A stretch of DNA of 57,719 nucleotides. Origin: a virus. Taxonomy: Duplodnaviria > Caudoviricetes. The stretch is from IMG/VR virus record IMGVR_UViG_3300029309_000042, positions 1 through 57,719 of that record, one strand, 5' to 3'. The notes under the pieces are model-generated. The model was not told the DNA's origin. It saw nothing but the letters and a program-made list of their open reading frames with translations, and made no database searches. Below, piece by piece: positions 5,180-33,114 of this stretch (positions within the stretch are counted from its first letter, which is position 1; the number at the start of each line of letters is the position of its first letter). Both the position numbers and the translations under genes were made by a program.

Positions 5180-5853
5180 TCTTTATTCTCCTTATAAAGA
5201 TTATTAAATGTTACATCAGGATCCATATATTGTTCATGTTCCTCTGCATTATGAGTCCATTGACTCGGTTTAAAATCGGGAGCTCCCTCTCCAGTTTCCC
5301 AGAGTGCAGGGGAAGTTACTCTTACCCTGTTGTTTGGCAAGGCAACTATGTTACCTGTCCAGTTGTCCGCCTTGATTAATTGAATAACATGACTCTGCTT
5401 ATGCTGAGCTGGGTCATCCGATAAATCAGACTGACTGTAATCTATTGTAAATAAATATTTACCGATATGCAACTTATTATCTATTTTACATATCCATGGA
5501 CTAACACTCACATAATCTAGCTTAACTACACTATGGTAATGAGAACTACAGTCCCAAGGTTGTGCAAACCGAGGGTGCATTATATCTGGCATAGTGTCAA
5601 GTGGTATATCAGCTACTAATGATGTCAATGGCATTCTAGCCCACATAGCACCACCATGTACATTTGGCTCTTTAGTACCATCAACTTCGCAACCAGTAAA
5701 AACTACTTGAAAACCTAATGTTCTATCAGGCATTGTTGTAACAGCAAAAGCGTGAGCATGAATAAATTCACCTCTATACTTTTCATGATTATGAGTAAAC
5801 TCTTTACGCACCCAACATTTAAAAAATGGGATATTACTAACTAAATAAGGCAT
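5176..5853 (-). CDS. Conserved hypothetical phage protein
   Basis: MPYLVSNIP...GGAMWARMP...QHKQSHV...ALPNNRVR; common in marine podophages. Confidence 0.7.
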   Translation of the reverse strand: MPYLVSNIPFFKCWVRKEFTHNHEKYRGEFIHAHAFAVTTMPDRTLGFQVVFTGCEVDGTKEPNVHGGAMWARMPLTSLVADIPLDTMPDIMHPRFAQPWDCSSHYHSVVKLDYVSVSPWICKIDNKLHIGKYLFTIDYSQSDLSDDPAQHKQSHVIQLIKADNWTGNIVALPNNRVRVTSPALWETGEGAPDFKPSQWTHNAEEHEQYMDPDVTFNNLYKENKE

Positions 5854-11067: not shown

Positions 11068-11505
11068 CTATGTATGCAAAATATCTTCAGGGTTATTTAT
11101 AGTAGCTAATATTTCATCATCGTTTAATAATCTAACTTCACCACCATCTATTTTAAATCTACTTCCTGCATATCGACCGAATATTACCCAGTCTTTTTCT
11201 TTGCACCATGGATTATACATATCTCCAAATTTTTCTTTGTCTTTGAATGCAAGAGGACCGATCTTCAAAACATATCCACATACGGTAGCCAAAGCTTCAC
11301 GCTCTACAGCTTCGTCGGGTATAAAAACACCACCCTCAGTTTTGCCTTTACCCTTGTAAGGCAAAATTAAGACACGCCAACCAGTAGGCTGAGGCATTTT
11401 ATCTAGATTGGATTCTTGTGTTTCTGTTTGTTTTTCGGGGGTTTCTTGTTTTGTTACTTCTTGATATTTTTTAGCTAATCTTCTAGGGACTATTAGTTTA
11501 CTCAT
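11068..11505 (-). CDS. groES: Co-chaperonin GroES (Cpn10)-like protein
   Basis: PTGWRVLI...KTEGGVFIP...VIFGRYAGSRFKIDGGEVRLLNDDEILA. Confidence 0.85.
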   Translation of the reverse strand: MSKLIVPRRLAKKYQEVTKQETPEKQTETQESNLDKMPQPTGWRVLILPYKGKGKTEGGVFIPDEAVEREALATVCGYVLKIGPLAFKDKEKFGDMYNPWCKEKDWVIFGRYAGSRFKIDGGEVRLLNDDEILATINNPEDILHT

Positions 11506-13925: not shown

Positions 13926-16291
13926 CCTTGATTCCTTTGTGAAGCTATAAATCTAGCATTTTGTGCTCGCATGTTAGCTATATCTTCAGTTGTATTGATA
14001 CGGTCTTTTTGTATCAAAGTATTTGCTTGAAGCTTTTGTTTATTAAGTTCTAGTTGCTCTGCATCAGTTCTAGCTTGATTCATTGCTTCTTGTTCTTTTA
14101 TTTGTAACTCTTTTGCTTTTAAGTCTACTAATGGGTCGCTTTGCTGTCCGCCAAGTACTTGAGCTTCTAATTCAAAATATTGTTTTGTAAGTTCAGCTTC
14201 TATTTGTGATAATCTAGCTTGTGCCATAGCTGGATCCATCTGCTGTTGTTGTGCTTCCATTTGTATCTGCATACTAGCTTTTAAACCAATATGTTCAAAT
14301 ATATGTTGCTGTAATATATTTATCATAGCTGGATTACTTCTAACAGATATACTACCCATGTAAGCTAAATGAGTAGATATATGTGCATCATGGTCTTGTT
14401 CTGGAAAAGCTTTAAGTTGCATTTGTCCACCTATTACTGACATAACTTTACCATTCTCTATAACTGCGTTCATAGGTTGTGGTTGTGGTGGAGGTGGTAA
14501 TAACTGCTCAATATTATCTACACCTAAACTTATATACACTCTTCTATATGCTTCATACAAATTGTGCATTTCAGGCTTACTCGTTGCCAACTTTAATTGT
14601 TCTTGTGCCAAACTAATGCGTTGTGACATACTAAAAATATTAGGATTAGCTACTGGTACAATATCAATACGTTGGTCAAAGTCTTGTGCTTTATCACCTT
14701 CTTCGGTATATGGGTATGCACCACCTTCTTGTGATATTAAATCAGCAATAAGTTTAAACTCTTGCTTCATACCATTATACAAACGCTTATGAACAGCACT
14801 TATAATTCTACTACCACGCTCTAACAAAGCTATAGTTGTACCTACTGGCATCTCTTGATTGTTTATATTGCCAGTACCCATATCTGTTGTGCCGACAAAT
14901 TTTTGAGCCGCCTGAACCACAAAACCGAGTAGCTGAAATAATGTGCCACTCGGTTCTTGGTAGGGGAGATTAAAAAATGAGTTTTTAAGTTGGTCACCAA
15001 CAACATCTACATCACGCCATTCTCCAGGACGTAATGGTTCATCGTCATTTTTAATTCTTAAACCCCTAGCTTTAAAACCAGATGGCATATTTGCTAGAGT
15101 ACCTGAGTCTATTAACTGCCGTAAGTTTGCTGTCGCCGCTCTAGACAAGTTACCAAGTAAATGTATAAGTCCATTACCGTAAAAACCTAGTCCAGGAGTG
15201 AACATATAGTGAACAAAATACTGTTTTTTGTTTTTAAAAGCATCATTTGGGTCATAATTTCGGTAAACGGACAAAACTTCGCCATTTTCAGCACTAACTG
15301 TAACAATATACGGTAATTTTACACCAGTTTCCTCACCATCTCCGCCAATATCAGGAAATTTTTCCAAATCTAAGTAACAATGGCACTCAAAAAGCTGAAC
15401 TTCTTCATAATCGCCTTGTGCGTATACACCAGTTATTGATTCTACTGTGTCATCGGCTTCATCTCTGTCTGTTTGTCCTGATTGTATATCTATATCACGG
15501 TAAAATTTACTTACTTGAAGCTTTCTAAGCTCATTTTCGGTCATTGTAATGACTTGTGTTACTCTATCAGCAGAATCTAAGTCCGTAGCATTAAATGGCA
15601 CGAGCATATCTTTCGCCTCAACGAACTTACTTACTTGCCTACCGAGTTGTGGGTCTACATAAATCTTTTTAAAAGCACTACCACCTAGCCCCAAATAATA
15701 TAACATCTGGTCAAACTCAGCTTCATACTCTTTCATAGTGTGCATAATTGTATAATTCATATAATCTTGCACACGTTCTGCTTGTTTTTCTAAATCTGGG
15801 GTTGTTGTTCCCATAACTTGTGTGCGTACTGGACCTTTCGCTGGAAGAAGTTCCTTATATGCTTGACTTTGGAACTGCGTAACTGCTTCATTCAACATAG
15901 GGTGTACTACACCAGTAGCACCATCAAAAGGTTCTGTTCTATTTTCGTAATTCAAACCAAGTAAATTTAAGCCTTCACTGTATGTATTCAACCACTCACT
16001 ACGAGCATTTTTATCTTCTTCTACTTTTTCTAATACAAAGCTACTAATACCAGTTAATTCTTCATCATCTAACTGCTCAGCTAAATTAGCCATAAAACTT
16101 GTATCTTCTGGCTCATCCTCTTGAGAGCCAAGTTCCACGGACCCATCTTCAAGTTCGGTAATTTCCATACCTTCTACTATTTCAGGTTGGTCTTCTATAT
16201 CAACATCAACTGGATCTGGGTCAAGTATTGGGTTGCCAACAAGTGTAAGCTCACGTTCAATATTATTATAAGGGTTTTTCGGTTCAGCCAT
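13922..16291 (-). CDS. Portal protein
   Basis: TEPFDGATGVVHPML...PGLGFYGNGLIH...LRQLIDSGTLAN...GEWRDVD...PVGTTIAL; 789 aa, downstream of terL. Confidence 0.9.
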   Translation of the reverse strand: MAEPKNPYNNIERELTLVGNPILDPDPVDVDIEDQPEIVEGMEITELEDGSVELGSQEDEPEDTSFMANLAEQLDDEELTGISSFVLEKVEEDKNARSEWLNTYSEGLNLLGLNYENRTEPFDGATGVVHPMLNEAVTQFQSQAYKELLPAKGPVRTQVMGTTTPDLEKQAERVQDYMNYTIMHTMKEYEAEFDQMLYYLGLGGSAFKKIYVDPQLGRQVSKFVEAKDMLVPFNATDLDSADRVTQVITMTENELRKLQVSKFYRDIDIQSGQTDRDEADDTVESITGVYAQGDYEEVQLFECHCYLDLEKFPDIGGDGEETGVKLPYIVTVSAENGEVLSVYRNYDPNDAFKNKKQYFVHYMFTPGLGFYGNGLIHLLGNLSRAATANLRQLIDSGTLANMPSGFKARGLRIKNDDEPLRPGEWRDVDVVGDQLKNSFFNLPYQEPSGTLFQLLGFVVQAAQKFVGTTDMGTGNINNQEMPVGTTIALLERGSRIISAVHKRLYNGMKQEFKLIADLISQEGGAYPYTEEGDKAQDFDQRIDIVPVANPNIFSMSQRISLAQEQLKLATSKPEMHNLYEAYRRVYISLGVDNIEQLLPPPPQPQPMNAVIENGKVMSVIGGQMQLKAFPEQDHDAHISTHLAYMGSISVRSNPAMINILQQHIFEHIGLKASMQIQMEAQQQQMDPAMAQARLSQIEAELTKQYFELEAQVLGGQQSDPLVDLKAKELQIKEQEAMNQARTDAEQLELNKQKLQANTLIQKDRINTTEDIANMRAQNARFIASQRNQG

Positions 16292-16463
16292 GTAACCCTC
16301 CTTTTATCACATAAAAGCGTTGTCTTATTAAGTGTGCCACATTTTCACGTATCTCGCTAGAAGTTAATGGTTCAAAATTTTCATCTTCTACAACCAAAGC
16401 ATCTGTCAACATTTCTACCTCATGGTATAATTGCTGAGGTGTCAACTCATCCGTAGTAGGCAT
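16284..16463 (-). CDS. Small hypothetical protein between terL and portal
   Basis: Likely start MPTTDEL; overlaps both neighbours. Confidence 0.45.
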   Translation of the reverse strand: MPTTDELTPQQLYHEVEMLTDALVVEDENFEPLTSSEIRENVAHLIRQRFYVIKGGLHG

Positions 16464-17919
16464 TATTTCTAGGTATATATTCTGGCTCATAAACTTCATC
16501 CTCTGGGTGTGTTATAAATCCACCTTCTCTAAATCTTCGTAAAGCTTGGGTTACTGTATCAACAAAGTCATCATGCTCTCCAGCAGGAAAACTCGCACAC
16601 TCTTCAATAACTTCTTCAGCCCAACGAGTATCTGGTGACCATACTAACCCACTTTCTAGTAAAGGTGCAACTGAATTAACACGACTGAATTTATCGTTAC
16701 CTCTACTTGGGCTATAATTTTGTATTGGAATGCCCATCTGCCGTAGTTCATGGGTCAATGGCATACCTGATGCTTTCGCCTCAATCAAGACACATTCTGG
16801 ATCCCAGTATTGATATTCCTCCAAAGCTATTTTGCGTAACTCGGGAAAGTCCCACCTACCACGTCTAGCATCACAAAGAATTATGTTGGGAGGTCCACCC
16901 TCCTCTGGGTAAAAAACACCCCAAGTAGTTATTGCTGAATAGTCCGCTGTTTCTTTTTTACTAAACGCAGTATCGTATGACTGCATAACATAACTCAAAG
17001 GTGGTATATCTTCTTTTTTCCAAACTTGCCACCACTCCCTTTTTAGTATGGCACTTGTTTCACTCGTCGGGTTTTGTTGCCATTGGGCTTCCCACTTACC
17101 AACTGACAATGAAGCCTTAACCTTTAACAGTTCTTCTACTTTCCAAAAGTTAGACCACATTGCCTTACCATCAGGTAAAATAGCTGGGAACTCAATTACT
17201 TCCCACTGGTCAGCTAACACATCTCTAGCTTGTTGCTTAATTAATTTACCAGTTAAATCTATCTCACTCCACCTTGTCATTACGATTACTATAGCTCCTC
17301 CTGGCTGAAGTCTCTGGCGAGGACCTGAGGTGTACCATTCATATGCGTTCTCCAAAGCGGATGGACTTAAAGCATCTTGTTCTGAGTGGGGGTCATCTAT
17401 TATCATCAAATCTGCACCACGACCAGTTATCGCTCCACCAACTCCAGCCGCGAAGTATTCGCCACCTTTGTCTGTTTCCCAACGTCCAGCCGCGAGGCTG
17501 TCTGACCGTAACTTTACATCTGGAAATACTTGGGCGTACTCGGCTCCTGCCATAAGGTTTCTTACTTTTCTACCAAACCTCACGGCTAGTTCACCAGTAT
17601 GAGTTGCTTGTATTATCTTTAACTTTGGGTTACGTCCCATCAACCAACTCGGCAATAAGTAACTTGCAAACTCTGACTTAGTATGTCTCGGGGGCATGTT
17701 TACAATAAGTCGTTTTATTTTGCCAGTAGCCAAGTCGTTAAATTTTTTCGCCATTATCTTATGGTGCTCACCTTCTATAAAATCTTCCCATATAGCACCA
17801 ACATATGTCATAAAATCTTTACGAGCACCCTCAGCAGTCACTAACTGCTTTTGCTTTTCCATAAGTTTTAAGTAATGTCGTAATTTTTCTTCAGGAATGT
17901 TTAAAGGGGCTTGTGTCAT
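16447..17919 (-). CDS. terL: Terminase large subunit
   Basis: NMPPRHTKS Walker A, IIDDPH Walker B, QSYDTA RNase H-like nuclease, HDDFVD. Confidence 0.95.
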   Translation of the reverse strand: MTQAPLNIPEEKLRHYLKLMEKQKQLVTAEGARKDFMTYVGAIWEDFIEGEHHKIMAKKFNDLATGKIKRLIVNMPPRHTKSEFASYLLPSWLMGRNPKLKIIQATHTGELAVRFGRKVRNLMAGAEYAQVFPDVKLRSDSLAAGRWETDKGGEYFAAGVGGAITGRGADLMIIDDPHSEQDALSPSALENAYEWYTSGPRQRLQPGGAIVIVMTRWSEIDLTGKLIKQQARDVLADQWEVIEFPAILPDGKAMWSNFWKVEELLKVKASLSVGKWEAQWQQNPTSETSAILKREWWQVWKKEDIPPLSYVMQSYDTAFSKKETADYSAITTWGVFYPEEGGPPNIILCDARRGRWDFPELRKIALEEYQYWDPECVLIEAKASGMPLTHELRQMGIPIQNYSPSRGNDKFSRVNSVAPLLESGLVWSPDTRWAEEVIEECASFPAGEHDDFVDTVTQALRRFREGGFITHPEDEVYEPEYIPRNNAYYG

Positions 17920-18097
17920 TTTTTTATAAAAATTTTTCCATGGACAATGAACCTGACTTCATATATACACAAAAGGGGGGTCATGTACAAATAATTTTCT
18001 GATATGCTGTGATTCGTGCGGAACCTGTATGCACTGACGCACATACATGTATATCTCCCGTCAGGGAGGGGACCGTTAACATGTTAACTAACTACCC

Positions 18098-18134
18098 AAA
18101 AAAATAGGGCTATGGTTGTAACGCCATAGCCCTA
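18098..18134 (-). terminator. Intrinsic terminator of the TC/GA-free gene
   Basis: 11-bp stem TAGGGCTATGG/CCATAGCCCTA followed by T7 on the minus strand. Confidence 0.85.
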
Positions 18135-18144
18135 GCAGTAGCCC

Positions 18145-18684
18145 CTATTTAAGGGCTACTAGCGTACCAAAGTTAGTACCGTAGGTATGCTTAGCTAAGT
18201 AGCTAAAGCTACCTATAAGCACTGCACCTAGTGCGTTTTGCCTACAACCGTTTTGGCTATTGGCATTTGCTAAAATACTGCTACCACTTAATTGGCTAAT
18301 AGCTTGTATTTGGCTAAGTGGTATTATTTTAGCTTGGCTAGGTACAACCATATTAACAAGCGTTGCGTGTACTTTAGGGCATGTAGTTTTACCCTTAAGC
18401 TTTGTAATAGCTTGTTGGTTAACACCATTTACACAAGCCCATAATATAGCCCCAGCTACGCTATTTTGTGCTTGTTGTGCTTTTAGCATTGGTTGCCACA
18501 AAGTGCCTTTAGCATTAACGCCACCAAACAAAGTGCCATTAGCAGTAAAGGCATTTTTGTTTAACTGTAAGCCCCATTTATGTACGCCACCGTTAGCGTT
18601 AATAAATGCAACCATATTGGCTACTAAAGTGTGTGCGTTTTTTTGTGTTACTGCACTTGTAACATTGTTAAAAGTATTTGGCAT
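18145..18684 (-). CDS. Hypothetical early protein with no Asp/Glu, encoded without TC/GA dinucleotides; paralog of 20320-20787
   Basis: Own sigma70-like promoter, AAGGGGG RBS and terminator; aligns by eye with the 20320-20787 product. Confidence 0.8.
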   Translation of the reverse strand: MPNTFNNVTSAVTQKNAHTLVANMVAFINANGGVHKWGLQLNKNAFTANGTLFGGVNAKGTLWQPMLKAQQAQNSVAGAILWACVNGVNQQAITKLKGKTTCPKVHATLVNMVVPSQAKIIPLSQIQAISQLSGSSILANANSQNGCRQNALGAVLIGSFSYLAKHTYGTNFGTLVALK

Positions 18685-18726
18685 GTTAGCCCCCTTTTAG
18701 TTAGTTAAGCCGTAGTTGGCAATTAT

Positions 18727-18755
18727 AGAATAGCAAATACAAAATAGGTTGTAAA
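18727..18755 (-). promoter_or_regulatory. Sigma70-like promoter of the 18145-18684 gene
   Basis: TTTACA-17 bp-TATTCT on the minus strand. Confidence 0.65.
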
Positions 18756-18950
18756 CACTTAATTTACTTTTTTTACACTTTTTTTATTTTGTGTTGCATT
18801 TTCGCAACAACTACCTTTTTTGATTTGTGATTGTGATTTACATATATGCCACGCTGTCATCATATGATTGAGCACGCGACAATGTGTAACAATCCATCAG
18901 GCAAATAATAATACAGCCATCAGGATTGCTACCACATATAACAATATCAT

Positions 18951-19106
18951 TTACTTAGCTCGTGATGCAAAGCAAATACCATAACAGTAGTGACTGCCAT
19001 ACCACATAGTATAAGTTGCCACTCAAAGGTAAATATGCACATAACTAAGAATGCTAGTGAAAGTAAAACACATACCCAAGCAAGAATAAAATTAAATGTT
19101 TCCATT
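18951..19106 (-). CDS. Small two-TM membrane protein (51 aa)
   Basis: Hand translation METFNFILAWVCVLLSLAFLVMCIFTFEWQLILCGMAVTTVMVFALHHELSK; AAGGAG RBS. Confidence 0.5.
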
Positions 19107-19262
19107 GTTTAGCTCCTTTAAATATTTATGTACTACAAAATTAAGGGCTTGTTGCAACCCGACGTGCATACCATATTCTTTTAAAATATGGTCCTGAACT
19201 TGTTTAAGCCCGTCAGCATCTGAGTGACGTAGCGTAAGCATTTTTTCTTTTACTATTGACAT
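19092..19262 (-). CDS. Small ribbon-helix-helix-like protein, paralog of 23654-23818
   Basis: MSIVKEKMLTLRHSDADGLKQVQDHILKEYGMHVGLQQALNFVVHKYLKE; GGAG RBS and own promoter. Confidence 0.55.
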   Translation of the reverse strand: MSIVKEKMLTLRHSDADGLKQVQDHILKEYGMHVGLQQALNFVVHKYLKELNNGNI

Positions 19263-19294
19263 TGTTAACTCCATTGGTTGTTTAAGTTATGTTT

Positions 19295-19324
19295 ATAGTA
19301 TTACCTGTGATTTATATAGAGCAA
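19295..19324 (-). promoter_or_regulatory. Sigma70-like promoter (twin of 19711-19740)
   Basis: TTGCTC-18 bp-TACTAT. Confidence 0.55.
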
Positions 19325-19413
19325 TAAAAAGATTGTCATGTCTGAACGGGCTGAATCAAATTGACTCTGCTCGCCCAGTCAAAAAGAAGGAGGGCGTGAG
19401 CCCCCCCACTTGA

Positions 19414-19677
19414 TTAAACATTTAAAAGCTTTCCATCCATCCCAAAGTTCAATACATGCTTGAGGTGTCCATCCTCATACACATTGTAAGATAAAGGTTG
19501 CTTTTTGACAGGCTTACCATACGTTCGGTAAAAGTCAATGAAGCCTTGGACATCTTCCATTACCCACATGATAGCATCCTTTGAGTTTGTGAAACTCGCC
19601 GCACTCTTCATATATGCAAAAACATACTGTCCAGGTTTTAGTGGACCTCTACATACTAACCATTCTTGATTACTCAT
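19414..19677 (-). CDS. Hypothetical early protein
   Basis: AGGAG RBS, own promoter, downstream GC-rich hairpin near 19390-19407. Confidence 0.6.
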   Translation of the reverse strand: MSNQEWLVCRGPLKPGQYVFAYMKSAASFTNSKDAIMWVMEDVQGFIDFYRTYGKPVKKQPLSYNVYEDGHLKHVLNFGMDGKLLNV

Positions 19678-19710
19678 TGTTAACTCCTAAGGTTTTATTT
19701 AATTATTTAA

Positions 19711-19740
19711 ATAGTATGGGGCATGATTTAAATAGAGCAA
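19711..19740 (-). promoter_or_regulatory. Sigma70-like promoter (twin of 19295-19324)
   Basis: TTGCTC-18 bp-TACTAT. Confidence 0.55.
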
Positions 19741-19845
19741 TAGTAGAAGTGTCATACGATTTCTTCTTCCCGTCGTGAATCAATTGGAATCAAGTATGTT
19801 ACTGTATATGTGATGGTACATGTATATGTGATTCAAATAGAATCA

Positions 19846-20271
19846 TCAATCCATCCATCCATCCTGTCCCGAGAACATTTGAGAAAATAAGAGTTGCCAT
19901 GCGTTTTGATCCATGTTGATCGGTCGCTTCGCATCGTACGAAACGTCACCATCCATCAACCTCGCTCCAAGGTTCTTTCCATCAATAATTAATACGCTCT
20001 GGGAGGAAGGATGATGAACCAAGTTATAAACCCGACCTCCATGCTGAGTTCTTAAGGTCTGCCATGCAATCTGCAAGGGTCTAAATGTTGGGTAGCTCTT
20101 GTCGTTTCTTGTTGTCAAAACCTTTAATTCAAACCAAGCTTCGTTCCCCTTATAACATCCACTCAGGTCAGGTATCCCAGTCGCCGTGTAGGATTCTAAC
20201 CTACTCCAATGACACATTCCCTCGGTCTGTTTTTTAATTATGTTCCAAAATTTTGTTTCAGGTTTAATCAT
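19846..20271 (-). CDS. PD-(D/E)XK nuclease, VRR-NUC/Holliday junction resolvase-like
   Basis: E...GIPDL...WFELK...LQIAWQ motif set. Confidence 0.75.
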   Translation of the reverse strand: MIKPETKFWNIIKKQTEGMCHWSRLESYTATGIPDLSGCYKGNEAWFELKVLTTRNDKSYPTFRPLQIAWQTLRTQHGGRVYNLVHHPSSQSVLIIDGKNLGARLMDGDVSYDAKRPINMDQNAWQLLFSQMFSGQDGWMD

Positions 20272-20283
20272 TTTGTTAGGTCT

Positions 20284-20312
20284 AAAAAAACCCCCAGTCG
20301 TAAAACTGGGGG
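20284..20312 (-). terminator. Intrinsic terminator of 20320-20787
   Basis: 8-bp stem CCCCCAGT/ACTGGGGG followed by T7 on the minus strand. Confidence 0.85.
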
Positions 20313-20319
20313 CTGAATA

Positions 20320-20787
20320 TTATTGTTTTGGGATAACGTATAACTCTACGAAGTTTTTACCCCATGAAGTAGACTTGGCTGACTGCCCACCGTTAAGAGC
20401 GTCAATTAAAGCGTGGAACGAACGTGCCTTAATTGATTTATGGTATTGGTCAACCATAGCTAAGGTAAGAGGATCTTTACCTTGTTGACAATTAATTAAT
20501 TGCCAGACAACTTTGGCACGGAGGGTAGATTTAGCCGTACCATTTTCCTCATATAAGGTTTTTTGTTTTTCCCACGGAAAAGGTAATTTGTCTTTTACGT
20601 TAACACCGTCAACAAGACGAACACCAACATTGTTGATATTACCCCCAGCATTTTGCTGAACAAAAGCAGTGATATCTGCAACGGTAACACCCTCACGGGA
20701 TTTGATACGCTCAGCTGATAAGCTAGTAATACCAGTGAATGTGATAGGCTTTTGAGGTGCCTTTACCTTTAAAGCTGATTTAGCCAT
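20320..20787 (-). CDS. Hypothetical early protein, normally coded paralog of 18145-18684
   Basis: Own promoter (TTTACA-17-TACTCT at 20832-20860), AAAGGAG RBS and terminator. Confidence 0.75.
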   Translation of the reverse strand: MAKSALKVKAPQKPITFTGITSLSAERIKSREGVTVADITAFVQQNAGGNINNVGVRLVDGVNVKDKLPFPWEKQKTLYEENGTAKSTLRAKVVWQLINCQQGKDPLTLAMVDQYHKSIKARSFHALIDALNGGQSAKSTSWGKNFVELYVIPKQ

Positions 20788-20867
20788 AATAAACTCCTTT
20801 CTACGAGTTTTGTTGTTTAAGTTATGCTAATAGAGTACTACATAACTTCGTCATTGTAAACACCTAA

Positions 20868-21392
20868 TTACTCATTACGATTACTTTTTTTATCTGCTGA
20901 ATGTTCTATTAATTGTGGGAACTCTTCCTGAATACGTTTGATTTCGTCCATGACTTCATCACGATTCATTTGGTCAATCCGTCCGTGTAATATTTCTTTT
21001 CTATCTATATATAATCCAGCCGCCTGACCTCTTGCTTTTTCAGCGGCGACAGCAGATGCGTAATTCTGGTTAGCCATCGCATCGTCTCGTATTTGTGATA
21101 GTTTACGAACATGACTTTCAAAAGTGACCTCATACTTCTGTTGTAGTTCAATCTTAAGTTGATGTATCCTATCCAAGATTTGTGGGAAGTCCCTGCCGTT
21201 CAGCATCTTACTAGCAATCGCATGAGCATTGGACTTTGCATATCCTGCTTCAATCGCCGCCTCAGTCTGTGTTACTTCCTGAGTTGCGTAGATTTTACAA
21301 AACTTTTCTTGTTTGGGTGTCAATCCAAAACTTACTTTAGGATTAGCGACCACTTCTAGTTTAGGTCGGTGTGTTACTTTAGCTCTAGCCAT
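20868..21392 (-). CDS. terS: Terminase small subunit
   Basis: LTPKQEKFC...TEAAIEAGY...AHAIASKML HTH; AAEKARGQAAGLY. Confidence 0.8.
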   Translation of the reverse strand: MARAKVTHRPKLEVVANPKVSFGLTPKQEKFCKIYATQEVTQTEAAIEAGYAKSNAHAIASKMLNGRDFPQILDRIHQLKIELQQKYEVTFESHVRKLSQIRDDAMANQNYASAVAAEKARGQAAGLYIDRKEILHGRIDQMNRDEVMDEIKRIQEEFPQLIEHSADKKSNRNE

Positions 21393-21567
21393 ATCTTTAT
21401 TATATAACTTTGCTAAATAGAAGCAACAAGTGAAATCTTATCGTCGCCGAAGAACTCCACTTGTTGTCGCGAAACGGAAATAATCGATATTAGATATCGT
21501 ATATTATAATATCTGATTTTGTATTTCACTCTAATTTCATTTTAGTACTATATAGTAAAGTCTAATT

Positions 21568-21780
21568 TCAATTAGTAATGTCTTGATGTTCAGGGTACAA
21601 ACCTCGCTTTTCATCAATGCGTTGTTGCTCTTTTTTGTACTCTTCTAACCTATTCATATGATCCGAGACTCTTTGTGCGTCGGCATACGAATTATGTTGG
21701 GTGACTGTTTTGCCATCAGCCACTACCACATATACCCCATCGGGCATGGTTCTTACTTCATATTGCATTACTGCCTCCAC
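21568..21780 (-). CDS. Hypothetical protein
   Basis: ORF in early cluster. Confidence 0.5.
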   Translation of the reverse strand: MEAVMQYEVRTMPDGVYVVVADGKTVTQHNSYADAQRVSDHMNRLEEYKKEQQRIDEKRGLYPEHQDITN

Positions 21781-22007
21781 TCTTTAGTTTTAATGAACTT
21801 ACCTTTTTCAAAGTGATAAGTTTTACCCTCACCGTTTTTGTAAGCACCGTTGATACGACCTATGTACTCAGACTTTAGATTTTTATTACTGATACTTAAA
21901 ACATAAGCCATCATATCGTGAACGTCTTTTTCGTTGTCGTGTTGAAATATTTCACGAACACTACCATCTTCGTCATAAATGACACCAGTTGCATATAATT
22001 TATCCAT
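21768..22007 (-). CDS. Hypothetical protein
   Basis: AGGAGG RBS. Confidence 0.55.
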   Translation of the reverse strand: MDKLYATGVIYDEDGSVREIFQHDNEKDVHDMMAYVLSISNKNLKSEYIGRINGAYKNGEGKTYHFEKGKFIKTKEWRQ

Positions 22008-22016
22008 TGTTACCTC

Positions 22017-22358
22017 CTATAATAAAAAATTATGCTTGATTACTTTTAAGCAGTTGTCCAAGGTCTGTGAGTCATCACAATACCAAATTTGTTTTTCTGG
22101 TGACTTGTTACCAATTTGTTTAAGAAAAAACTTTTCATAAATTACCATGATAGATTCGGCACATGGCATCGGCTGTTGTGGCATACGAACAATAGTAAGT
22201 TCTTCCACATCACTGGGTGACCAAGTCCATACATTTTCATGTTGGCATATTGCTTGAGCCTCTATAACTAAGACGCCCCCTGAAAAACACTTTGCTTTAT
22301 TTTTGTATTCTGCAGAGTTGTAAAGCTCTGTAAAATATTTAGTAGCACGTTCAAACAT
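22017..22358 (-). CDS. Hypothetical protein
   Basis: Likely start MFERAT with AAGGAG RBS. Confidence 0.55.
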   Translation of the reverse strand: MFERATKYFTELYNSAEYKNKAKCFSGGVLVIEAQAICQHENVWTWSPSDVEELTIVRMPQQPMPCAESIMVIYEKFFLKQIGNKSPEKQIWYCDDSQTLDNCLKVIKHNFLL

Positions 22359-22427
22359 GACTAACTCCTTTGATGTTAAATTTACTTTATAATTTAATAA
22401 TAACCCATGATATACCATGAGGTACCA

Positions 22428-22925
22428 TTATTTTGTCTGTTGACGATTGGCTTTTCTCATGGAGAAATAATGAGGGTACACTTTGTAGCAAGAAGCACAC
22501 TTGTAAATGATTGTGAACATAGAATAAAAGAACTCGCCAATGTTCGGGGGCGGAGCTCCACAACAATAACATCTTGGTACTTCATCTAATGTACAATGTA
22601 GTATTGACTCACGATGGAATGGGTCAATCCGCTCTTCAGTCGTTGCAGTAAACATTCCGTGGACACCAGATTTACCATTTGTTTCTTGCAGTCTGGCTGA
22701 GCGTATGTAAGGGTCTTGTTTCTTCTTATATTTCTTTTTACGTTTATTTCTTACTGTTCTTGCACCACTTCCATCATCAATCAAATGTTTTGCACGATAC
22801 TTGAGTGGTGGTAGGGGGATCGTGGTAAGTGTAGGAAGAGGATCAACCGTAACCTCTTCCATCTTTATACCTTGAGCTTCGGCAAACTCCCTAAGGATAT
22901 CATCAAGTTCGTCGTTTAGGGACAT
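22428..22925 (-). CDS. Hypothetical protein with C-terminal CxxC...CxxC zinc ribbon
   Basis: CYCC...CASC. Confidence 0.5.
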   Translation of the reverse strand: MSLNDELDDILREFAEAQGIKMEEVTVDPLPTLTTIPLPPLKYRAKHLIDDGSGARTVRNKRKKKYKKKQDPYIRSARLQETNGKSGVHGMFTATTEERIDPFHRESILHCTLDEVPRCYCCGAPPPNIGEFFYSMFTIIYKCASCYKVYPHYFSMRKANRQQTK

Positions 22926-23122
22926 TCAGTATCTACTATTTGCTCAATGTGGTCAGCAGTGCATCCACAAGCGTGAAGTTTGCTAACTAATCTTATCTTA
23001 GCGTTTTTCACATTAGTAACGCTCCTGCTATCTTTCCAACCATAATCTAAACTAATTTCATCATGGTATTCTTCAATGGCTTGATCAATCTCGTCTTGCC
23101 ATAACTGTTTTACTTTACCCAT
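22916..23122 (-). CDS. Hypothetical protein
   Basis: MGKVKQLWQD; coupled ORF with GGAGG RBS. Confidence 0.55.
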   Translation of the reverse strand: MGKVKQLWQDEIDQAIEEYHDEISLDYGWKDSRSVTNVKNAKIRLVSKLHACGCTADHIEQIVDTECP

Positions 23123-23459
23123 CGGCTTCCTCCTTTACAAAAATGCCGTCAACTAATTTACCCTTACGTTCTTTAATATCGTTGAACGCTCTGTGTAAAC
23201 ATGTCCGTAAGCTAAGACCATTACGAACGGCTATATTAATCAATACAACTAATATATCACCAATAGCATCAGCAGTTTGATAGTTGGCTAATGGCTTTTC
23301 ATTACGCAATGCTCTTGCTAACTCACCGACTTCCTCGGTGAGCTTTGCTAGTTGTGCCTGATCGGTGCTACCATCAATCAGGTTTCTTTTGTGATGCCAA
23401 TCAACAACGGCTTGATGCAGTTCTTTGAAGGTCATCCCCATATAATTAGGTATCGTCAT
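23115..23459 (-). CDS. MazG-like nucleotide pyrophosphohydrolase
   Basis: KLTEEVGELA...DAIGDILVVL...IKERKGKLVDGIFVKE. Confidence 0.85.
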   Translation of the reverse strand: MTIPNYMGMTFKELHQAVVDWHHKRNLIDGSTDQAQLAKLTEEVGELARALRNEKPLANYQTADAIGDILVVLINIAVRNGLSLRTCLHRAFNDIKERKGKLVDGIFVKEEADG

Positions 23460-24918: not shown

Positions 24919-25269
24919 TTAAAGTTGTCCATTTAATCTGTGTTGTTCCATAGTTCTTATAATGGTGTGAACACGTTGACGTGACATATTATACTCTGCA
25001 CCTAACTTCGCAAGAGTCTTGTAACCCTTCCAGTAATCCTCGTATATCTGCAAATTCCTGTCTACTTTATTATGTGAGTGAACACCAGTTCTACCATCGC
25101 GAATATACTTATGCAGTTTAAACTTATCAATCCATCTACTAATAGTATTTATACGGACGTTGTACTTTTTAGCTAACTCTATTTTACTCTTAGGGTTTTT
25201 ATCCCAAGCATTTTGTAAAACAAAATCGTAAAAGTCTTGCCATACTTCATCAGTCAGTTTTGTCATCAT
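24919..25269 (-). CDS. Tandem helix-turn-helix DNA-binding protein
   Basis: KIELAKKYNVRINTISRWI and TLAKLGAEYNMSRQRVHTII. Confidence 0.7.
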   Translation of the reverse strand: MMTKLTDEVWQDFYDFVLQNAWDKNPKSKIELAKKYNVRINTISRWIDKFKLHKYIRDGRTGVHSHNKVDRNLQIYEDYWKGYKTLAKLGAEYNMSRQRVHTIIRTMEQHRLNGQL

Positions 25270-25552
25270 CTTGCTCCAATGTAAAATCATACTGGGTTTG
25301 CGTAGTCATGCCCTCTTGGTTTTCCCAGAAGTCATCATCACGATCGTAAGGGTGGCGTGGTTTATCAGCATCTGTTTTTTTAAACTGCACTACACGATTA
25401 TTAGTAGGCTTTTCATAAAACGATTGTATAAACCTCAAAGCATTTTCCATGCTGTCTGCCATGTGTTTTTGTATGTGGATACCGTGATAGTATCGCACAA
25501 GATACTTGTTACCAAGTTCATATATTTCAAATTTAGGCTCTAAGGGCTTCAT
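25250..25552 (-). CDS. Hypothetical protein
   Basis: Likely start MKPLEP. Confidence 0.5.
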   Translation of the reverse strand: MKPLEPKFEIYELGNKYLVRYYHGIHIQKHMADSMENALRFIQSFYEKPTNNRVVQFKKTDADKPRHPYDRDDDFWENQEGMTTQTQYDFTLEQDDDKTD

Positions 25553-26445: not shown

Positions 26446-26516
26446 AGTAAACCTCCTTAAATACAAATATGCTATATTATAAAGGCAGGACTTTAAAAAT
26501 GTAAACACATAAGTGT

Positions 26517-27038
26517 TCAAATGATTAATTTTAAATGTCGTAAGACTTGCCTGACTGGTTCAAAGTCGGAGAGCGAAGAGTAATTGTCCATAAGATAGTT
26601 AACACCAGTCTGCATAATAAGTTTCATGCGAGGGTTACTATCATTAAGTTTATGACAGTACATGACTAACTCAAGCATATCTGCCATTTTTAATCTGTTT
26701 GTTTCACGTTCTGTTAACACAAAGTTTATACCTAGATCCTTAGCTACTTTGTCTTCTGCTTTTTTAAATGCTTTCTTTATTTCAGGGTATTCCCACTTAG
26801 CCGTCGCTGGGATATCACCTAATACTATCTCAGGTACGTCGTGATAGAGAGCAGAGAGCAATAGACTCTTGGAGCAGTTATCCCATAGTTGGTCCAATAA
26901 AACTACGACGGCATAAGAGTGAGCACCCACAGTTTGCCTCAATCCGCCAAGTGGTACAGTGTGATACCGATTAATAAATTGTGCATCATATATAGTTTCA
27001 ATCTTATCATAATTAATTTGGTTGCTCACTGTGTCCAC
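26517..27038 (-). CDS. HD-domain 5'-deoxynucleotidase (YfbR/DatZ-like)
   Basis: RYH...QTVGAHS...ALYHDVPEIVLGDIP...LKMADMLE. Confidence 0.85.
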   Translation of the reverse strand: MDTVSNQINYDKIETIYDAQFINRYHTVPLGGLRQTVGAHSYAVVVLLDQLWDNCSKSLLLSALYHDVPEIVLGDIPATAKWEYPEIKKAFKKAEDKVAKDLGINFVLTERETNRLKMADMLELVMYCHKLNDSNPRMKLIMQTGVNYLMDNYSSLSDFEPVRQVLRHLKLII

Positions 27039-29065: not shown

Positions 29066-29370
29066 TTACCCTTTGTTCGCATGTGTGCTTCTACTAATAA
29101 TAAATAACGTCGCAAGTCTTTAATATCATCCATAAGCCCCTCAGGTCTTTTGTCCTCCTCTAAGGCTAGAAAAATATCATATGTATAATCATGAACTTGT
29201 TTTTCAATACGATCCCACTTACGAGCTAACATCATAAAAGCACCAATACCACCTCGTTTACGCCAACTATCGCCATAGTCTTCTTCGGCTCTGTCGAGTG
29301 AAGTCCAGTCCTCTGCACATATAATTTCTGTTTGTTTTATAATAGGGCTATATTCTTTTTGTTTTGTCAT
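29062..29370 (-). CDS. Nucleotide modification associated domain 1 (Nmad1/DUF1599-like) protein
   Basis: DYGDSWRKRGGIGAFMMLARKWDRI...DLRRYLLL. Confidence 0.7.
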   Translation of the reverse strand: MTKQKEYSPIIKQTEIICAEDWTSLDRAEEDYGDSWRKRGGIGAFMMLARKWDRIEKQVHDYTYDIFLALEEDKRPEGLMDDIKDLRRYLLLVEAHMRTKGK

Positions 29371-30362
29371 TTGAGTTTGTCCTTTCTACGATCAATCCAC
29401 TCTTTACATGCAATATGCCAGTCCTCCGACTTGATTTCTGACAAAGCATCCATACATTCTAAGTAGCTTTTAGTTTTCCATGATGTCCATAACTTCCACA
29501 TTGGTAAAGCTACCTCAGAAAATATCTTGTTTTTAAAATCTTTACGCATTTGACCAACCATAAATATTTTTAATTCTTCATCAAATGTTTTAGGGTAAGT
29601 CATCAAAGGCGTTTGATATTCTATTTGCCTAACTGCATACGAATCATAGTCAGGTTGCATATCTTTTAGTGGAGTAAGTGTGTCTAAATAAGCATGAAGG
29701 TTATGTGTAAACTGAGTATAAAAACCTATATTCACACCACACATACTCGCTATATATTCTTGTAAATAACTCATATGAACTGCATTAGCACCACAACAAC
29801 CCCATATCAAATCATTACTTCTGTTACACACAGTCATGTCTAAAAACCCATCACGAATACTAAAATAAACATGAGTATTACAAGGTAAATCTTTACTAGT
29901 GTTTAAGTGCGTTAAGTCTTGCTTTGCATCCCACATTGCCAACACTGCACGTCTATCATTTTTGTAAGAGGTTAAGCGTTCAATTATTATTTTAAGTTGG
30001 TCAAACTCAAAATGTTTTCTCCACCTATAACCATAAGCACCTTGCAGAGTTTTACCATCATCACTAAAGTCACTCATACGTTTGTTGTAATATTCTACTG
30101 TTTCTAAATCACGCATACCGTTCAGCATCCAGAGTGATTCCATGAAGTGAAATATTGGGTTAGCATCACGCTGTTCGTAGAACATAACTCTTTCTTGTGG
30201 GTGATTATAAGTAATCGCAACTGGTGTAGGAAACTCAAGAGCAGTACCCACTCTAGTTTCTATCTTTCTACCCACTTGCATGATTGATTGTTTAGCTAAG
30301 TGTAAAGCTTCTGAGACGTTGCCTACTACAAAAGTTTCTACACCATACATTCTTTTATACAT
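29367..30362 (-). CDS. Thymidylate synthase-family dUMP hydroxymethylase
   Basis: DLPCN catalytic Cys; RSNDLIWGCCGAN with the Asn that specifies dUMP; NLHAY; clustered with a 5-hmdU DNA kinase. Confidence 0.8.
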   Translation of the reverse strand: MYKRMYGVETFVVGNVSEALHLAKQSIMQVGRKIETRVGTALEFPTPVAITYNHPQERVMFYEQRDANPIFHFMESLWMLNGMRDLETVEYYNKRMSDFSDDGKTLQGAYGYRWRKHFEFDQLKIIIERLTSYKNDRRAVLAMWDAKQDLTHLNTSKDLPCNTHVYFSIRDGFLDMTVCNRSNDLIWGCCGANAVHMSYLQEYIASMCGVNIGFYTQFTHNLHAYLDTLTPLKDMQPDYDSYAVRQIEYQTPLMTYPKTFDEELKIFMVGQMRKDFKNKIFSEVALPMWKLWTSWKTKSYLECMDALSEIKSEDWHIACKEWIDRRKDKLK

Positions 30363-30439
30363 ATGTCCCCCTTTCTTTGGAGCTTTTTAAAGCCTCACGA
30401 GGCTTGGAATGTTATGTTTAGCACCTAACCTACCTAAAA

Positions 30440-31480
30440 CTAAATCAACTTATCAGAGGGCAAGTTAATAAAGTCATAAACTGGTTTGACTGCTTTAGTA
30501 TAACTATTACCACCACAAGCTTGTTCAATAAAGTTATTTGTCATCGCTGTGGGCTTCGGTAGCTCGTACTTACCCATTCTGTCAGGTAACAACCCATTAC
30601 GGATTGTAGTATTATCGCAACCATTACAAGCACCGAAGTTCCGTTGTCCGTGGTACAGTTTCACTCTAGCTGAGTAAAACGCATCATTGTTCCACAGTTC
30701 ATCCATGCCATTGTAGTCGTGTATATTACCACACTTATAGATGCCAGTCCAGTCATTGCAACATAGTGCTACATTACCGTCCCAACGAACACTTAGTTCA
30801 CGGAAAGGTTTTGCACATCGTTTGTCTTGTTGTTTGTAGTTTAATGGGAAAGCAGATCCAGCATGGTTGCTGACCTGAGCATGTGTACCACTCGTTGCTA
30901 TTGTTAAATCAGCACCGACTACAATTAATTTTTCTTTTGGTTTTCTTCTTTTATGAGGATTACCCTCTGGGTTTTGTGGATACTCTACAACTTTATGAGG
31001 TCCATTGTAATTAGCTTTTATTTTATCAACAATACGGATACGTTCATAATTATCTAAAAACAAAATGTTAAGTCCTGCATCCATAAGATCGTTAACTTTA
31101 TTACTTACATTACCGAGTAAACCACCCCCATTACTTGTCATCATAATAGAGGCTTTTGGAAAATACTGCCTAGTTGTTTGTATGAATACACAATACTCAG
31201 GGTGCATAGTCGGCTCACCGTGCATGGCAAACTCAAAGCGTGGATTCCAACTACTGTTTTTTATGTTCGTTAAAACCCTCAGTAGAGTATTACGTGTCAT
31301 AAATTTATACTCTTTAGAGTTTTTGCCATGCGTCCAACTTGGACCATCAGCACCATTATCTCTTATTTGTTGTATGCCACAAAAAGAACAAGCGAGGTTA
31401 CAACCCTCAGTTAATTCAATTTGTACTGCGTTCGGGGCATCCTGCTTTAAACGCTCGTTGCCATTGCACTCTAACGTCAT
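30440..31480 (-). CDS. Radical SAM enzyme with SPASM/twitch domain
   Basis: CNLACSFC (CX3CX2C); HGEP; C-terminal C...CCND...C...CNGC. Confidence 0.85.
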   Translation of the reverse strand: MTLECNGNERLKQDAPNAVQIELTEGCNLACSFCGIQQIRDNGADGPSWTHGKNSKEYKFMTRNTLLRVLTNIKNSSWNPRFEFAMHGEPTMHPEYCVFIQTTRQYFPKASIMMTSNGGGLLGNVSNKVNDLMDAGLNILFLDNYERIRIVDKIKANYNGPHKVVEYPQNPEGNPHKRRKPKEKLIVVGADLTIATSGTHAQVSNHAGSAFPLNYKQQDKRCAKPFRELSVRWDGNVALCCNDWTGIYKCGNIHDYNGMDELWNNDAFYSARVKLYHGQRNFGACNGCDNTTIRNGLLPDRMGKYELPKPTAMTNNFIEQACGGNSYTKAVKPVYDFINLPSDKLI

Positions 31481-32210
31481 ATCTTTTTTTCATTCCTTCC
31501 CAACCAGTTTTAGTTTCTTTTTCAACGACTTTAACAAACTCTGGAAACTTGGTGGCTAATTCATAACTAGCTTTTTCTTGTAACTCAGGTGTTCTGTAAT
31601 TACTACAACCTCCCTTTTGTCCGCTACCACCACGCTGATCCCATGTCCAGTCTACTATTACTGCATTTGGTTTACCTCTAGCAAATAAAGATAGAGTCAT
31701 GTAATAGTCTTCCATAAGTTCTACATCATTGTATCTAATATTTAATTTACCAATGTCAAGTGGTCGTAAACCATGCACTGCATTGATACGCATACCATGT
31801 TTGAGGGTATGGGGATAATGTTTATCATTCATTTGGCGAGGGCTAACACCGACATGCCAATACTCATTTAATAAATGTTCCATACGTTGAAACAAATACT
31901 GCATATCATCTTCAGTTGTTTTACGCAAACTTGGTCCGTGATTGCTAATACGTTTACCAAATATTAAATCATCATCTAACATAATAATTTTATCTTGTCC
32001 ATGTTCAATGGCATGATCCATTATAAATTCACGCACATTGTTTATGCCACTTACGTCGCCTCTTGACAACACATTTCTTCCATAATTTAAATGATACTTT
32101 ACTTCACTTTCAGGGCAAACTAAACAAGCCCTTTGTCTAGCCCACTCACCAATACTTCTCCAAGTTGTTTGTGTCGCAGTACGACCTCTTGTTGGTATAT
32201 ATATTTTCAT
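31416..32210 (-). CDS. GT-A fold glycosyltransferase, TET-associated (TAGT)/GREB1-like
   Basis: IYIPTRGR...REFI...MLDDD...MEDYYMTL...GGCS motifs. Confidence 0.75.
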   Translation of the reverse strand: MKIYIPTRGRTATQTTWRSIGEWARQRACLVCPESEVKYHLNYGRNVLSRGDVSGINNVREFIMDHAIEHGQDKIIMLDDDLIFGKRISNHGPSLRKTTEDDMQYLFQRMEHLLNEYWHVGVSPRQMNDKHYPHTLKHGMRINAVHGLRPLDIGKLNIRYNDVELMEDYYMTLSLFARGKPNAVIVDWTWDQRGGSGQKGGCSNYRTPELQEKASYELATKFPEFVKVVEKETKTGWEGMKKRYDVRVQWQRAFKAGCPERSTN

Positions 32211-32211
32211 T

Positions 32212-33114
32212 TTAGTCTCCGTTTACTGGTCCCTTTGGTATGCTTTGCATAACTTCTTTAAATTTACTTCTTGGTTTACCTTGACCAAGCCTTACTCTTT
32301 CGTATTTATCCCACTCACATAAACTATGTTCAATACAACGCATGTCTACATCATCATGATCGATTATATCCCAATCGACATACTTATGTTTTTCAGCTAA
32401 TATATTTTGCATGAACCTATTAGCTCGTTCTTGTGAGTGCATCTTTTTGAGGGGGTAACCATGTATCCTATTTATACCCCTCATTGCTCCTGGTCCTGCG
32501 TTCGCCCAACTAAAACGGTCTGTCGCCTTGTCCAGTACAGATGTGTAGTTGAGGTCGGAAACGACTTCGTAAGACATAAAGCCCCCTCCTCCCCACCCTT
32601 TATAGGCAGACAACGCATTGTGTACGGCTTGTAACGACTGAGTCTCGGACGCAAGTTTTCCAAGCGAGACTTGACTCTGGTAAATCGGTACAAGGAACTC
32701 ATATACAACAACCTCCGCTTTTGGTTTTTTAATACCTTGATTAGTTATTATATACGCTCCAGTGAATGTTTTTAAACCATGTTTAATTCTATTTGAAATT
32801 AAATTTACAGTATGCTCAGGATCCCACTCTAATGCGTCAGCATGTACCCAACCATGTACTTCAGCGAACTCCATAGTGCCTACCATTCTAAACAAGCAAC
32901 AGTTGAATATTATTTCACCAAAGGGGCGATTGTTGTGTGGGTCAGTCCATGCTTTTCGCATATAGACTGTGGTACGGTCGTTTTCCCTAAATGGGTTTGT
33001 AAATTTATATTCACGCAAAATAGGGTCTTCAGTCCATGGTGGACTGTCGCCCCTGACTCTAGCTAAATAAATGGCATGACGTTCATTTATCCAGTTGTAA
33101 AAATTTTCTATCAT
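32212..33114 (-). CDS. 5-hmdU DNA kinase (aGPT-Pplase clade 1)
   Basis: ERHAIY...PPWTEDPILREYKFTNPFRENDR...FMSYEVVSDL...GPGAMRG...IEHSLCEWDKY. Confidence 0.85.
   Translation of the reverse strand: MIENFYNWINERHAIYLARVRGDSPPWTEDPILREYKFTNPFRENDRTTVYMRKAWTDPHNNRPFGEIIFNCCLFRMVGTMEFAEVHGWVHADALEWDPEHTVNLISNRIKHGLKTFTGAYIITNQGIKKPKAEVVVYEFLVPIYQSQVSLGKLASETQSLQAVHNALSAYKGWGGGGFMSYEVVSDLNYTSVLDKATDRFSWANAGPGAMRGINRIHGYPLKKMHSQERANRFMQNILAEKHKYVDWDIIDHDDVDMRCIEHSLCEWDKYERVRLGQGKPRSKFKEVMQSIPKGPVNGD

Follow-up and report, generated by a model that had tools for sequence, protein, structure and literature searches.

In excerpts of a 2018 article, the motifs of thymidine hypermodification in phages were described as "not yet known" (PMC5889632; here and below, excerpts of the cited articles are meant). 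[quoted passage not shown] The phage thymine dioxygenase 5mYOX97 prefers NTC (PMC13229309), and bacterial RNA polymerases are blocked in vitro by bulky 5-substituents on uracil (PMC4838386). Here we describe two genes, called A and B, in a 97%-complete viral record of 57.7 kb (IMGVR_UViG_3300029309_000042; the window is this whole stretch of 57719 bases). Both lie on the minus strand between the genes for the small and the large terminase subunit (terS and terL). We found that both copies are constrained at the nucleotide level, completely in A, and in B to the extent that its protein permits. The property common to the pair is a sense strand without GA, which is equivalent to a template strand without TC (in B, outside the Asp and Glu codons).

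Gene A (18145-18684, minus strand) encodes a protein of 179 residues with an isoelectric point (pI) of 10.3, and its coding sequence contains neither GA nor TC. An earlier account of this DNA, made from its letters alone and referred to here as the sequence-only reading, had called this gene TC-free, and the description is accurate. On the plus strand, TC is absent from 18062 to 18802 and GA from 18072 to 18728; the sense strand of A is GA-free over 18062-18802. The island that is free of both dinucleotides on both strands spans 657 bp (18072-18728), from just below the -10 hexamer of the promoter to beyond the terminator, compared with about 86 bp for the longest run expected (5789 GA or TC sites in the 57719 bases). 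Upon synonymous resampling of the A coding sequence, 10.3 GA and 21.1 TC were expected, and both counts were zero in 0 of 20000 resamples. All 11 Ser codons are AGY, no GGA codon is present, and the junctions between codons are equally clean (G before A, 0 against 7.0 expected; T before C, 0 against 11.7 expected). The ribosome-binding site reads AAGGGGG instead of GGAG. As a result of the complete purge of GA, the protein has no Asp and no Glu. An antisense open reading frame (ORF) of 146 residues inside A (18260-18700, plus strand) is a by-product of the purge; its frame is open because DNA lacking GA and TC cannot contain a TGA stop on either strand.

Gene B (20320-20787, minus strand) encodes a protein of 155 residues with a pI of 9.8 and 12 Asp or Glu residues. 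It had been taken for a normally coded, unconstrained copy, a claim that was refuted by our counts. All 12 sense-strand GA of B are at codon position 1 and form the first two bases of Asp and Glu codons; outside such codons (non-D/E GA), 0 were found against 11.3 expected. With z values of -4.0 for B and -3.5 for A, the two genes are the lowest of 64 genes in the window for this measure. All 5 Arg codons of B are CGT, in a genome in which AGA is the commonest Arg codon (336 of 683), none of its 11 Gly codons is GGA, and junctions with G before A number 0 against 6.3 expected. Sense-strand TC is enriched in B (28 against 18.5 expected, z +3.1). As the major capsid gene has a non-D/E GA z value of 0.0, GA avoidance is not a general trait of highly expressed genes. 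The third strongest avoider is an ORF of 103 residues (34913-35224, minus strand; 2 non-D/E GA against 8.4 expected, z -3.1), which is located between a DUF932 gene and a UvrD-like helicase gene. The resampling of A, its purged ribosome-binding site and the synonymous purge in B together indicate that selection acted on the nucleotides and not on the protein alone.

The sequence-only reading had regarded A and B as paralogs on the basis of three blocks aligned by eye. All three blocks were reproduced in profile-profile alignments, and the first two were also found by BLASTP, which aligned A and B with an E value of 3e-4 (24 of 97 residues identical, 24% gaps). We gathered 40 relatives of A and 37 of B from metagenomes; the aligned families comprised 23 sequences for A, 25 for a narrow B family and 34 for a B family broadened by distant relatives. 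With hhalign, the A family matched the narrow B family with an E value of 0.009 and a probability of 4.5%, in an alignment that was colinear over the whole length and contained all three blocks. The match to the broadened B family had a probability of 96.8% and an E value of 2.5e-10 over 113 colinear columns, and a local repeat gave an E value of 4.4e-10 over 118 columns, 26 of them identical. A comparison of this kind, between hidden Markov models, had been named as the check on paralogy, and the similarity is significant with the broadened B family. The B profile retrieved 39 matches at E<=0.001 from 1.84 billion proteins with HMMER; these included distant relatives with 24-33% identity, some of which mix A-like and B-like motifs, and no A member was among them. 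When the same profile was run against the six frames of the window, A was missed at E<=10; a third paralog was not found in the window by profile search, a search that also missed A.

AlphaFold2 models of the two proteins revealed an identical order of helices and strands, H-E-H-H-E-H-H-E. The model of A had a predicted local distance difference test score (pLDDT) of 82 and a predicted template modeling score (pTM) of 0.82, and that of B had values of 75.5 and 0.70, respectively. A shared fold is likely. From the profile-profile result, the intermediate sequences and the matching element order, we consider it established at the sequence level that A and B are true, ancient paralogs. The acidic residues of B had been said to be replaced by Asn, Ala or Thr in A, which is correct for 6 of the 11 aligned positions; the remaining 5 carry Lys, Gly, Gln, Pro and Gln. 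In a tree of 57 family members, A and the B of the window fall into separate clades, each with support of 100/100, on long branches and with other lineages in between, and the duplication was therefore not recent. The nearest neighbours of the A clade are the low-acid proteins P0096 and P0112 (support 92/73, not a starred branch), which similar composition may be pulling toward A. The ratios of non-synonymous to synonymous substitution rates (dN/dS), 0.10-0.25 for A and 0.08-0.26 for B, show that both are real genes.

Judged by hexamers, spacing and conservation, A and B each have a predicted sigma-70-type promoter. The promoter of A (18727-18758, minus strand) carries the 10-mer GTGTTTACAA, a -35 element TTTACA (18755-18750), a 17-bp spacer and a -10 element TATTCT (18732-18727) with TG just before it. 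The promoter of B (20832-20863, minus strand) carries the same 10-mer and the same -35 element (20860-20855), again with a 17-bp spacer, and a -10 element TACTCT (20837-20832). The exact 10-mer occurs twice in 57.7 kb, at 18749-18758 and 20854-20863, in each case on the minus strand, upstream of the ATG of A or B by about 70 nt; with one mismatch allowed, it is not enriched (8 found, 9.6 expected). The pattern TTTACA-N17-TA[CT]TCT has exactly two matches in the window, at A and at B, so that the promoter architecture earlier proposed as shared by the two genes is confined to them there. The B promoter is unlisted in a general promoter scan because TACTCT fits only 3 of the 6 positions of TATAAT. 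A looser similar promoter, TGTGTTTACAT-18-TATAAT, is located at 26506-26476 (region 26476-26509, minus strand), and it precedes an ordinary small Cys-rich ORF without GA avoidance. Among relatives, the form TTTACA-N16-18-TAnnnT is kept in all 31 distinct B upstream sequences. The exact form of the A promoter is present in 20 of 40 distinct A upstream sequences, with the -35 element widely kept and the -10 element variable; by a crude script, an element G[GT]TTAC was found 68-87 nt upstream of the A ATG in 34 of 46 distinct A loci. In many loci, the word AGGGGTTTACA recurs upstream of A, at the -35 position and directly before the ATG, and AGGGG before the A ATG forms a GA-free ribosome-binding site.

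The intrinsic terminators that follow A (18097-18134, minus strand) and B (20282-20314, minus strand) each have a stem of 11 pairs, 6 of them G-C, followed by a T run. They are the two strongest in the scanned region 16000-23000, in agreement with the strong terminator that had been noted after each gene, and their folding energies are -24.9 kcal/mol for A (z -3.4) and -18.6 kcal/mol for B (z -4.5), with z values relative to shuffled sequence. The end of terS is 5 bp from the -35 region of B with no terminator between, and B can therefore also be reached by read-through. The description of the genes as monocistronic thus stands for B transcripts that start at its own promoter, and transcripts reading through from terS are also possible.

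Gene A is encoded in 59 viral loci, which hold 46 distinct A sequences, window included. Sense-strand GA in A numbers 0-2 in all 59 loci and 0 in 47 of them, whereas the flanks predict about 15-41; at 38 loci neither GA nor TC occurs, and non-D/E GA is 0 in 56 of the 57 full-length A ORFs. The B homologs have 0-8 non-D/E GA (mean 3.8, n=46) versus a mean of 19.0 in terS (n=42). The order terS-B-A-terL is kept at every locus with sufficient flanks, and the GA-free trait persists from 37% to 55% GC. At several loci (L010-L012, L051-L054, L033-L035, L038 and L046), A has 0-2 GA and 10-30 sense-strand TC. The coding style of A at these loci resembles that of B. Because such lineages carry sense-strand TC in A, and because B is rich in TC, the template strand is the constant feature. 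The A gene of L010 has 30 TC and that of L015 has none, and the encoded proteins are 82% identical; the promoters of these loci are almost identical and the coding DNA is only 75% identical, a mismatch that suggests mosaic exchange. Protein A diverges faster than its neighbours, being 41-45% identical where B is 54-63% and terL 76-83% identical, and in the closer genome pairs compared the dN of A is 2-3 times that of B.

In most A loci, the island extends from 110-370 nt upstream of the ATG to 80-110 nt past the stop. In L022 (4622-4798) and L032 (3765-3941), part of the upstream stretch is an extra small ORF, encoding a membrane protein of 58 residues that lacks Asp and Glu and whose DNA lacks GA and TC. 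Before this ORF stands a further copy of the GGTGTTTACA element, and at L021 and L029 a shorter hydrophobic ORF is found in its place. A more distant clade, in which B is about 40% identical, also has an A-type gene free of GA, TC, Asp and Glu codons about 1 kb downstream of B. Furthermore, a viral fragment of 55% GC (L130) contains a TC-free stretch of 1168 nt (3531-4698) with a single GA. This stretch holds a low-acid family member of 175 residues, whose sole Asp codon is that GA, and a second, Arg-rich ORF of 64 residues without Asp or Glu (4395-4588) follows within the island. The family member is located downstream of a terS-like gene and a homolog of the 141-residue ORF that lies between B and A in the window.

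Pfam matches revealed a thymidine hypermodification cassette at 29367-33114 on the minus strand of the window. It consists of a thymidylate-synthase homolog (29367-30362; Thymidylat_synt, 9.2e-21, a model that cannot separate deoxyuridine monophosphate hydroxymethyltransferase from thymidylate synthase), a radical SAM/SPASM protein (30440-31480), a TAGT-type glycosyltransferase (31416-32210) and a 5-hmdU DNA kinase (32212-33114; HMUDK_hel, PF18723, 3.5e-49, 168 bits against a cut-off of 25), all on the minus strand. The position of the TAGT-type transferase beside the kinase may point to a sugar-bearing thymidine. The pool-clearing enzymes MazG (23115-23459) and a YfbR-like HD phosphohydrolase (26517-27038) are encoded outside the cassette, and a family A DNA polymerase is also encoded in the window. 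Two 2-oxoglutarate-Fe(II) oxygenases (Pfam Oxy_5 at 53354-53947 and Oxy_3 at 54888-55487) lie outside the cassette among tail-fibre-like genes and belong to Pfam families other than TET/JBP. The kinase is present in all 8 clade records that are at least 86% complete and in 11 of 16 records, window included; the 5 without it are fragments at most 73% complete. In 5 of 5 relatives, the TAGT is conserved, and so is the radical SAM protein; these two and the kinase are present both where A has TC (G001, G002) and where it has none (G004, G005, G007). Among cultured kinase phages without the A/B family, no dinucleotide-free island was found in PhiJL001 (whole genome) or in YuA (first 49 of 58.7 kb). 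A search of the window for a T7-type RNA polymerase gave no match, a weak negative as the control matched nowhere. From this result and the presence of a Mor-like transcription activator (24919-25290), the phage probably uses the host RNA polymerase.

Proteins A and B probably act by binding nucleic acid or RNA polymerase and not as enzymes, because A works without carboxylate side chains and the family has no conserved acidic column. Within the 34-member family, no acidic column of B is conserved, and the column of D129 holds Ala in 18 and Asp in 13 members; this lack makes metal-dependent catalysis less likely and favours a role in binding or in structure. Pfam gave 0 families at E<=0.1 for A or B, and hence none of the HU family. 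PHROGs gave no match for A or B, and when all 34 members of the broadened family were searched, one matched an unnamed family (E 0.0059). Neither A nor B had a tblastn match in 50,697 phage records, and a PDB sequence profile search also gave none (0 at E<=10). Foldseek of model A against the PDB gave a best E value of 2.0, and VIA-align of model A against 48,161 chains gave a best Z-score of 3.8 and none of at least 5; winged-helix proteins appeared there weakly, with Z-scores of 2.2-2.8 for Nur, Zur, MecI and RRE domains. In BFVD, the best E values were 1.3 for model B and 1.9 for model A, the ESM Atlas had no usable match for either protein, and Rfam found nothing at the gathering score in 17800-21500. 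A prediction of the A+B complex scored 0.00 with "no answer", which speaks neither for nor against binding.

Based on these results, we propose the following explanation. A and B belong to the same unannotated family of small alpha/beta proteins of phages, basic with a pI of about 10, within which they diverged long ago. Each gene forms a separate expression cassette with strong signals, in which a promoter of its own and a short leader precede the coding sequence and a strong intrinsic terminator follows it, and the cassettes lie between terS and terL in a marine phage clade with a 5-hmdU-DNA-kinase pathway of thymidine hypermodification. TC would be the context in which this clade hypermodifies 5-hydroxymethyluracil (5-hmU), and the host RNA polymerase would be impeded where template-strand T bears bulky adducts. 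Gene A fully, and B largely, would then be built for transcription from fully hypermodified DNA, which could be the incoming genome or late DNA ready for packaging. The loss of sense-strand TC in A, seen in most lineages, would remove the modification from the whole duplex. Such a TC-context account would explain why the strands differ, why non-coding parts are purged as well and why the link is exclusively to kinase phages, and the "bootstrap" copy suggested in the sequence-only reading is a possibility that fits the data. Taken alone, the homology, the cassette architecture, the GA and TC purges with their conservation and the co-occurrence with the kinase are close to certain. The motif, the transcription block, the timing of expression and the binding function are what we infer, and for the explanation as a whole, this mechanism included, we hold the chance of being right to be slightly below even.

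Several points weigh against this explanation. The TC context is inferred for the kinase of this clade, and TG, the other published context, is not avoided. The presence of the modification genes does not track sense-strand TC in A. About 60 other genes are rich in template-strand TC (mean 67.5 sense GA per kb) and yet must be transcribed, so that a full block would need a further assumption, either an unlocking factor or newly made DNA. No other hypermodified phage is known to need a gene of this kind. The binding function is unsupported by any fold or family match. In the distant clade (L122-129), B has 9-12 non-D/E GA, near expectation, and the purge is relaxed there. The many loci cannot be counted as independent samples; together with the window they hold 46 distinct A sequences. 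Finally, the inhibition reported in vitro is mainly at initiation (PMC4838386), yet both promoters retain a TC on the non-template strand within the -10 hexamer.

A stronger form of the explanation, to which we give only a minor chance, is that hypermodification would act as a genome-wide transcription lock, with A the sole cassette readable from the incoming genome, B giving a low yield, and A/B serving as the unlocking factor. If this were true, A/B would be a new kind of factor that binds modified DNA or polymerase and opens the genome, and the GA/TC-free island would reveal the target motif of the 5-hmdU DNA kinase of this clade.

Another possibility, which we regard as unlikely, is immunity at the RNA level. 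A phage or host endoribonuclease would cut at or around GA, and the mRNA of A, without sites, and that of B, with few, would both outlast the decay. The idea of genes that lack the motif cut by a toxin is a known one, and what all A genes and B have in common is indeed a sense strand, and so an mRNA, in which GA is lacking; in some lineages sense-strand TC is normal, and the ribosome-binding site of A in the window also avoids GA. However, the lack of sense-strand TC in 38 of the 59 A loci would remain without a reason, as would the reach of the island 5' of the ATG and past the stop. In addition, no RNase candidate was identified in the window, and a dinucleotide would be an unusually short specificity. 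Equally improbable in our view, and compatible with the proposed TC-context explanation, is that A and B are two subunits of one complex. No observation contradicts it directly. The faster evolution of A in the closer genome pairs is atypical of tightly co-evolving subunits, and L130 shows one family member within 8.3 kb, whereas the co-occurrence of A and B at every locus with enough flank and their common promoter type, which suggests co-expression, are in line with a complex.

The avoided dinucleotide also matches a modification of the purine strand, in which G or A in 5'-GA-3' would be the modified base, as deazaguanine is in some phages, and the sense strands of A and B would be kept free of it. 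Published motifs are a strict GA for phage iggy's DpdA and GA/GGC for CAjan (PMC10484667). We searched the 97%-complete record for DpdA/TGT (PF01702) without a match, in a search that was positive in 14 of 14 control genomes; the modification genes found are thymidine-type, and with the modified base on the non-template strand there is less cause to expect transcription to be affected. This version is very doubtful. We assign a similarly small chance to the view that the island is a landing pad of unmodified DNA, for example a terminase pac site or a site for a replication protein or repressor, with the gene merely inside it. The island does lie between terS and terL at every flanked locus, exceeds the coding sequence and is motif-free on both strands in 38 of 59 loci, but what every lineage keeps is specific to one strand, the sense strand of the gene, B has the sense-strand purge without being an island, and the island edges track the cassette from promoter to terminator. 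Scarcely credible, and largely refuted, is a by-product of protein composition and codon bias, that is, of a basic protein without acidic need written in the codons of highly expressed genes: both genes have strong expression signals and B prefers CGT and GGT, a preference typical of highly expressed genes in many bacteria, but the resampling given the protein of A leaves both dinucleotides expected, codon junctions, non-coding leader and terminator are purged too, the major capsid gene is unbiased and the trait holds from 37% to 55% GC.

As for the genome setting, nearly all genes of the window are on the minus strand, on which the order is terS, B, four small ORFs, A, terL and the portal gene. 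The small terminase gene (20868-21392, minus strand; Pfam Terminase_2, 2.6e-11; phrog_51) lies directly upstream of the B promoter. The large terminase gene (16447-17919, minus strand) lies directly downstream of the A terminator; its assignment comes from the annotation of the records matched by blastn, two of them Pelagibacter phages and one an unassigned phage. In those related loci where much of TerL is covered, terL identity is 77-98%, and Pelagibacter phage HTVC027P, the closest cultured terminase match, has no A/B homolog by tblastn. The variable block between B and A (18947-20271, minus strand) contains ORFs of 141, 87, 60 and 52 residues, of which the first (19846-20271) is nuclease- or helicase-like (phrog_2165/phrog_93), and the distance from B to A differs among relatives. 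Two sequencing runs contained contigs of small share and uncertain kind, from a relative that is 90-95% similar. One contig of 2.1 kb extends from beyond A to the 141-residue gene and has adapter-like loose ends; it has no bearing on transcription. Elsewhere, the window encodes a ferredoxin-like auxiliary protein (5176-5853), a GroES-like co-chaperonin (11068-11505), a TOTE-type archaeo-eukaryotic primase (36830-38380) and an SNF2 helicase (40441-41877), the last being the sole long gene on the plus strand.

In the open-access full-text literature, we found no description of a motif-free or unmodified gene in hypermodified phages, and none of a whole transcription unit purged of a dinucleotide; motif avoidance itself is known. 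The same is true, even more so, of a unit whose purge deprives the protein of two amino acids, is kept from 37% to 55% GC and has its counterpart in a paralog purged at synonymous sites only. If the proposed explanation is true, the word avoided by one essential cassette would disclose a modification motif straight from a genome, and hypermodified thymidine would have a transcription cost that phages must design around. It would also give a testable TC prediction for a kinase family of unsettled specificity (PMC5889632; for the TG/TC inference, PMC6449724). Under any mechanism, A and B amount to a natural experiment, in which purifying selection maintains what is likely the same fold both with Asp and Glu and in their absence, in phages of 37% to 55% GC. 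Marine viral metagenomes hold the family in abundance, and no annotation, Pfam or PHROG family or recognisable fold was found for it.

We compared this locus with the closest known systems. Avoidance of restriction or modification motifs is known from phage genomes, as are genes free of a toxin's cleavage motif. These systems resemble the present one in that a short word is selected against because of a sequence-specific enzyme. The differences are that the word here has two bases, that it is purged from one or two transcription units instead of being thinned genome-wide, and that the purge strips two amino acids from a protein family. TF1 of phage SPO1 is an abundant phage protein that binds 5-hmU DNA. 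It is similar to A and B as a small, basic, strongly expressed protein of a thymine-replaced phage, but A and B have no sequence relation to it (no Pfam match at E<=0.1), and DNA binding by A and B is conjectural.

The window shares with the known 5-hmdU-kinase phages the kinase, the thymidylate-synthase homolog, the radical SAM enzyme and the pool-clearing enzymes. It differs from them in that the transferase next to the kinase is a TAGT-type glycosyltransferase, and in that TC only is avoided, whereas TG and TC are implicated in those phages (PMC6449724). With the dPreQ0 modification of phages iggy and CAjan it has the same dinucleotide in common, read on the other strand (PMC10484667), although the window has no DpdA/TGT homolog. 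The difference from 5mYOX97 is that no TET/JBP-type enzyme was seen in the window and that 5-hmdU is presumably made before replication; the likeness is that the thymidine modification of a phage can be confined to a TC context (PMC13229309).

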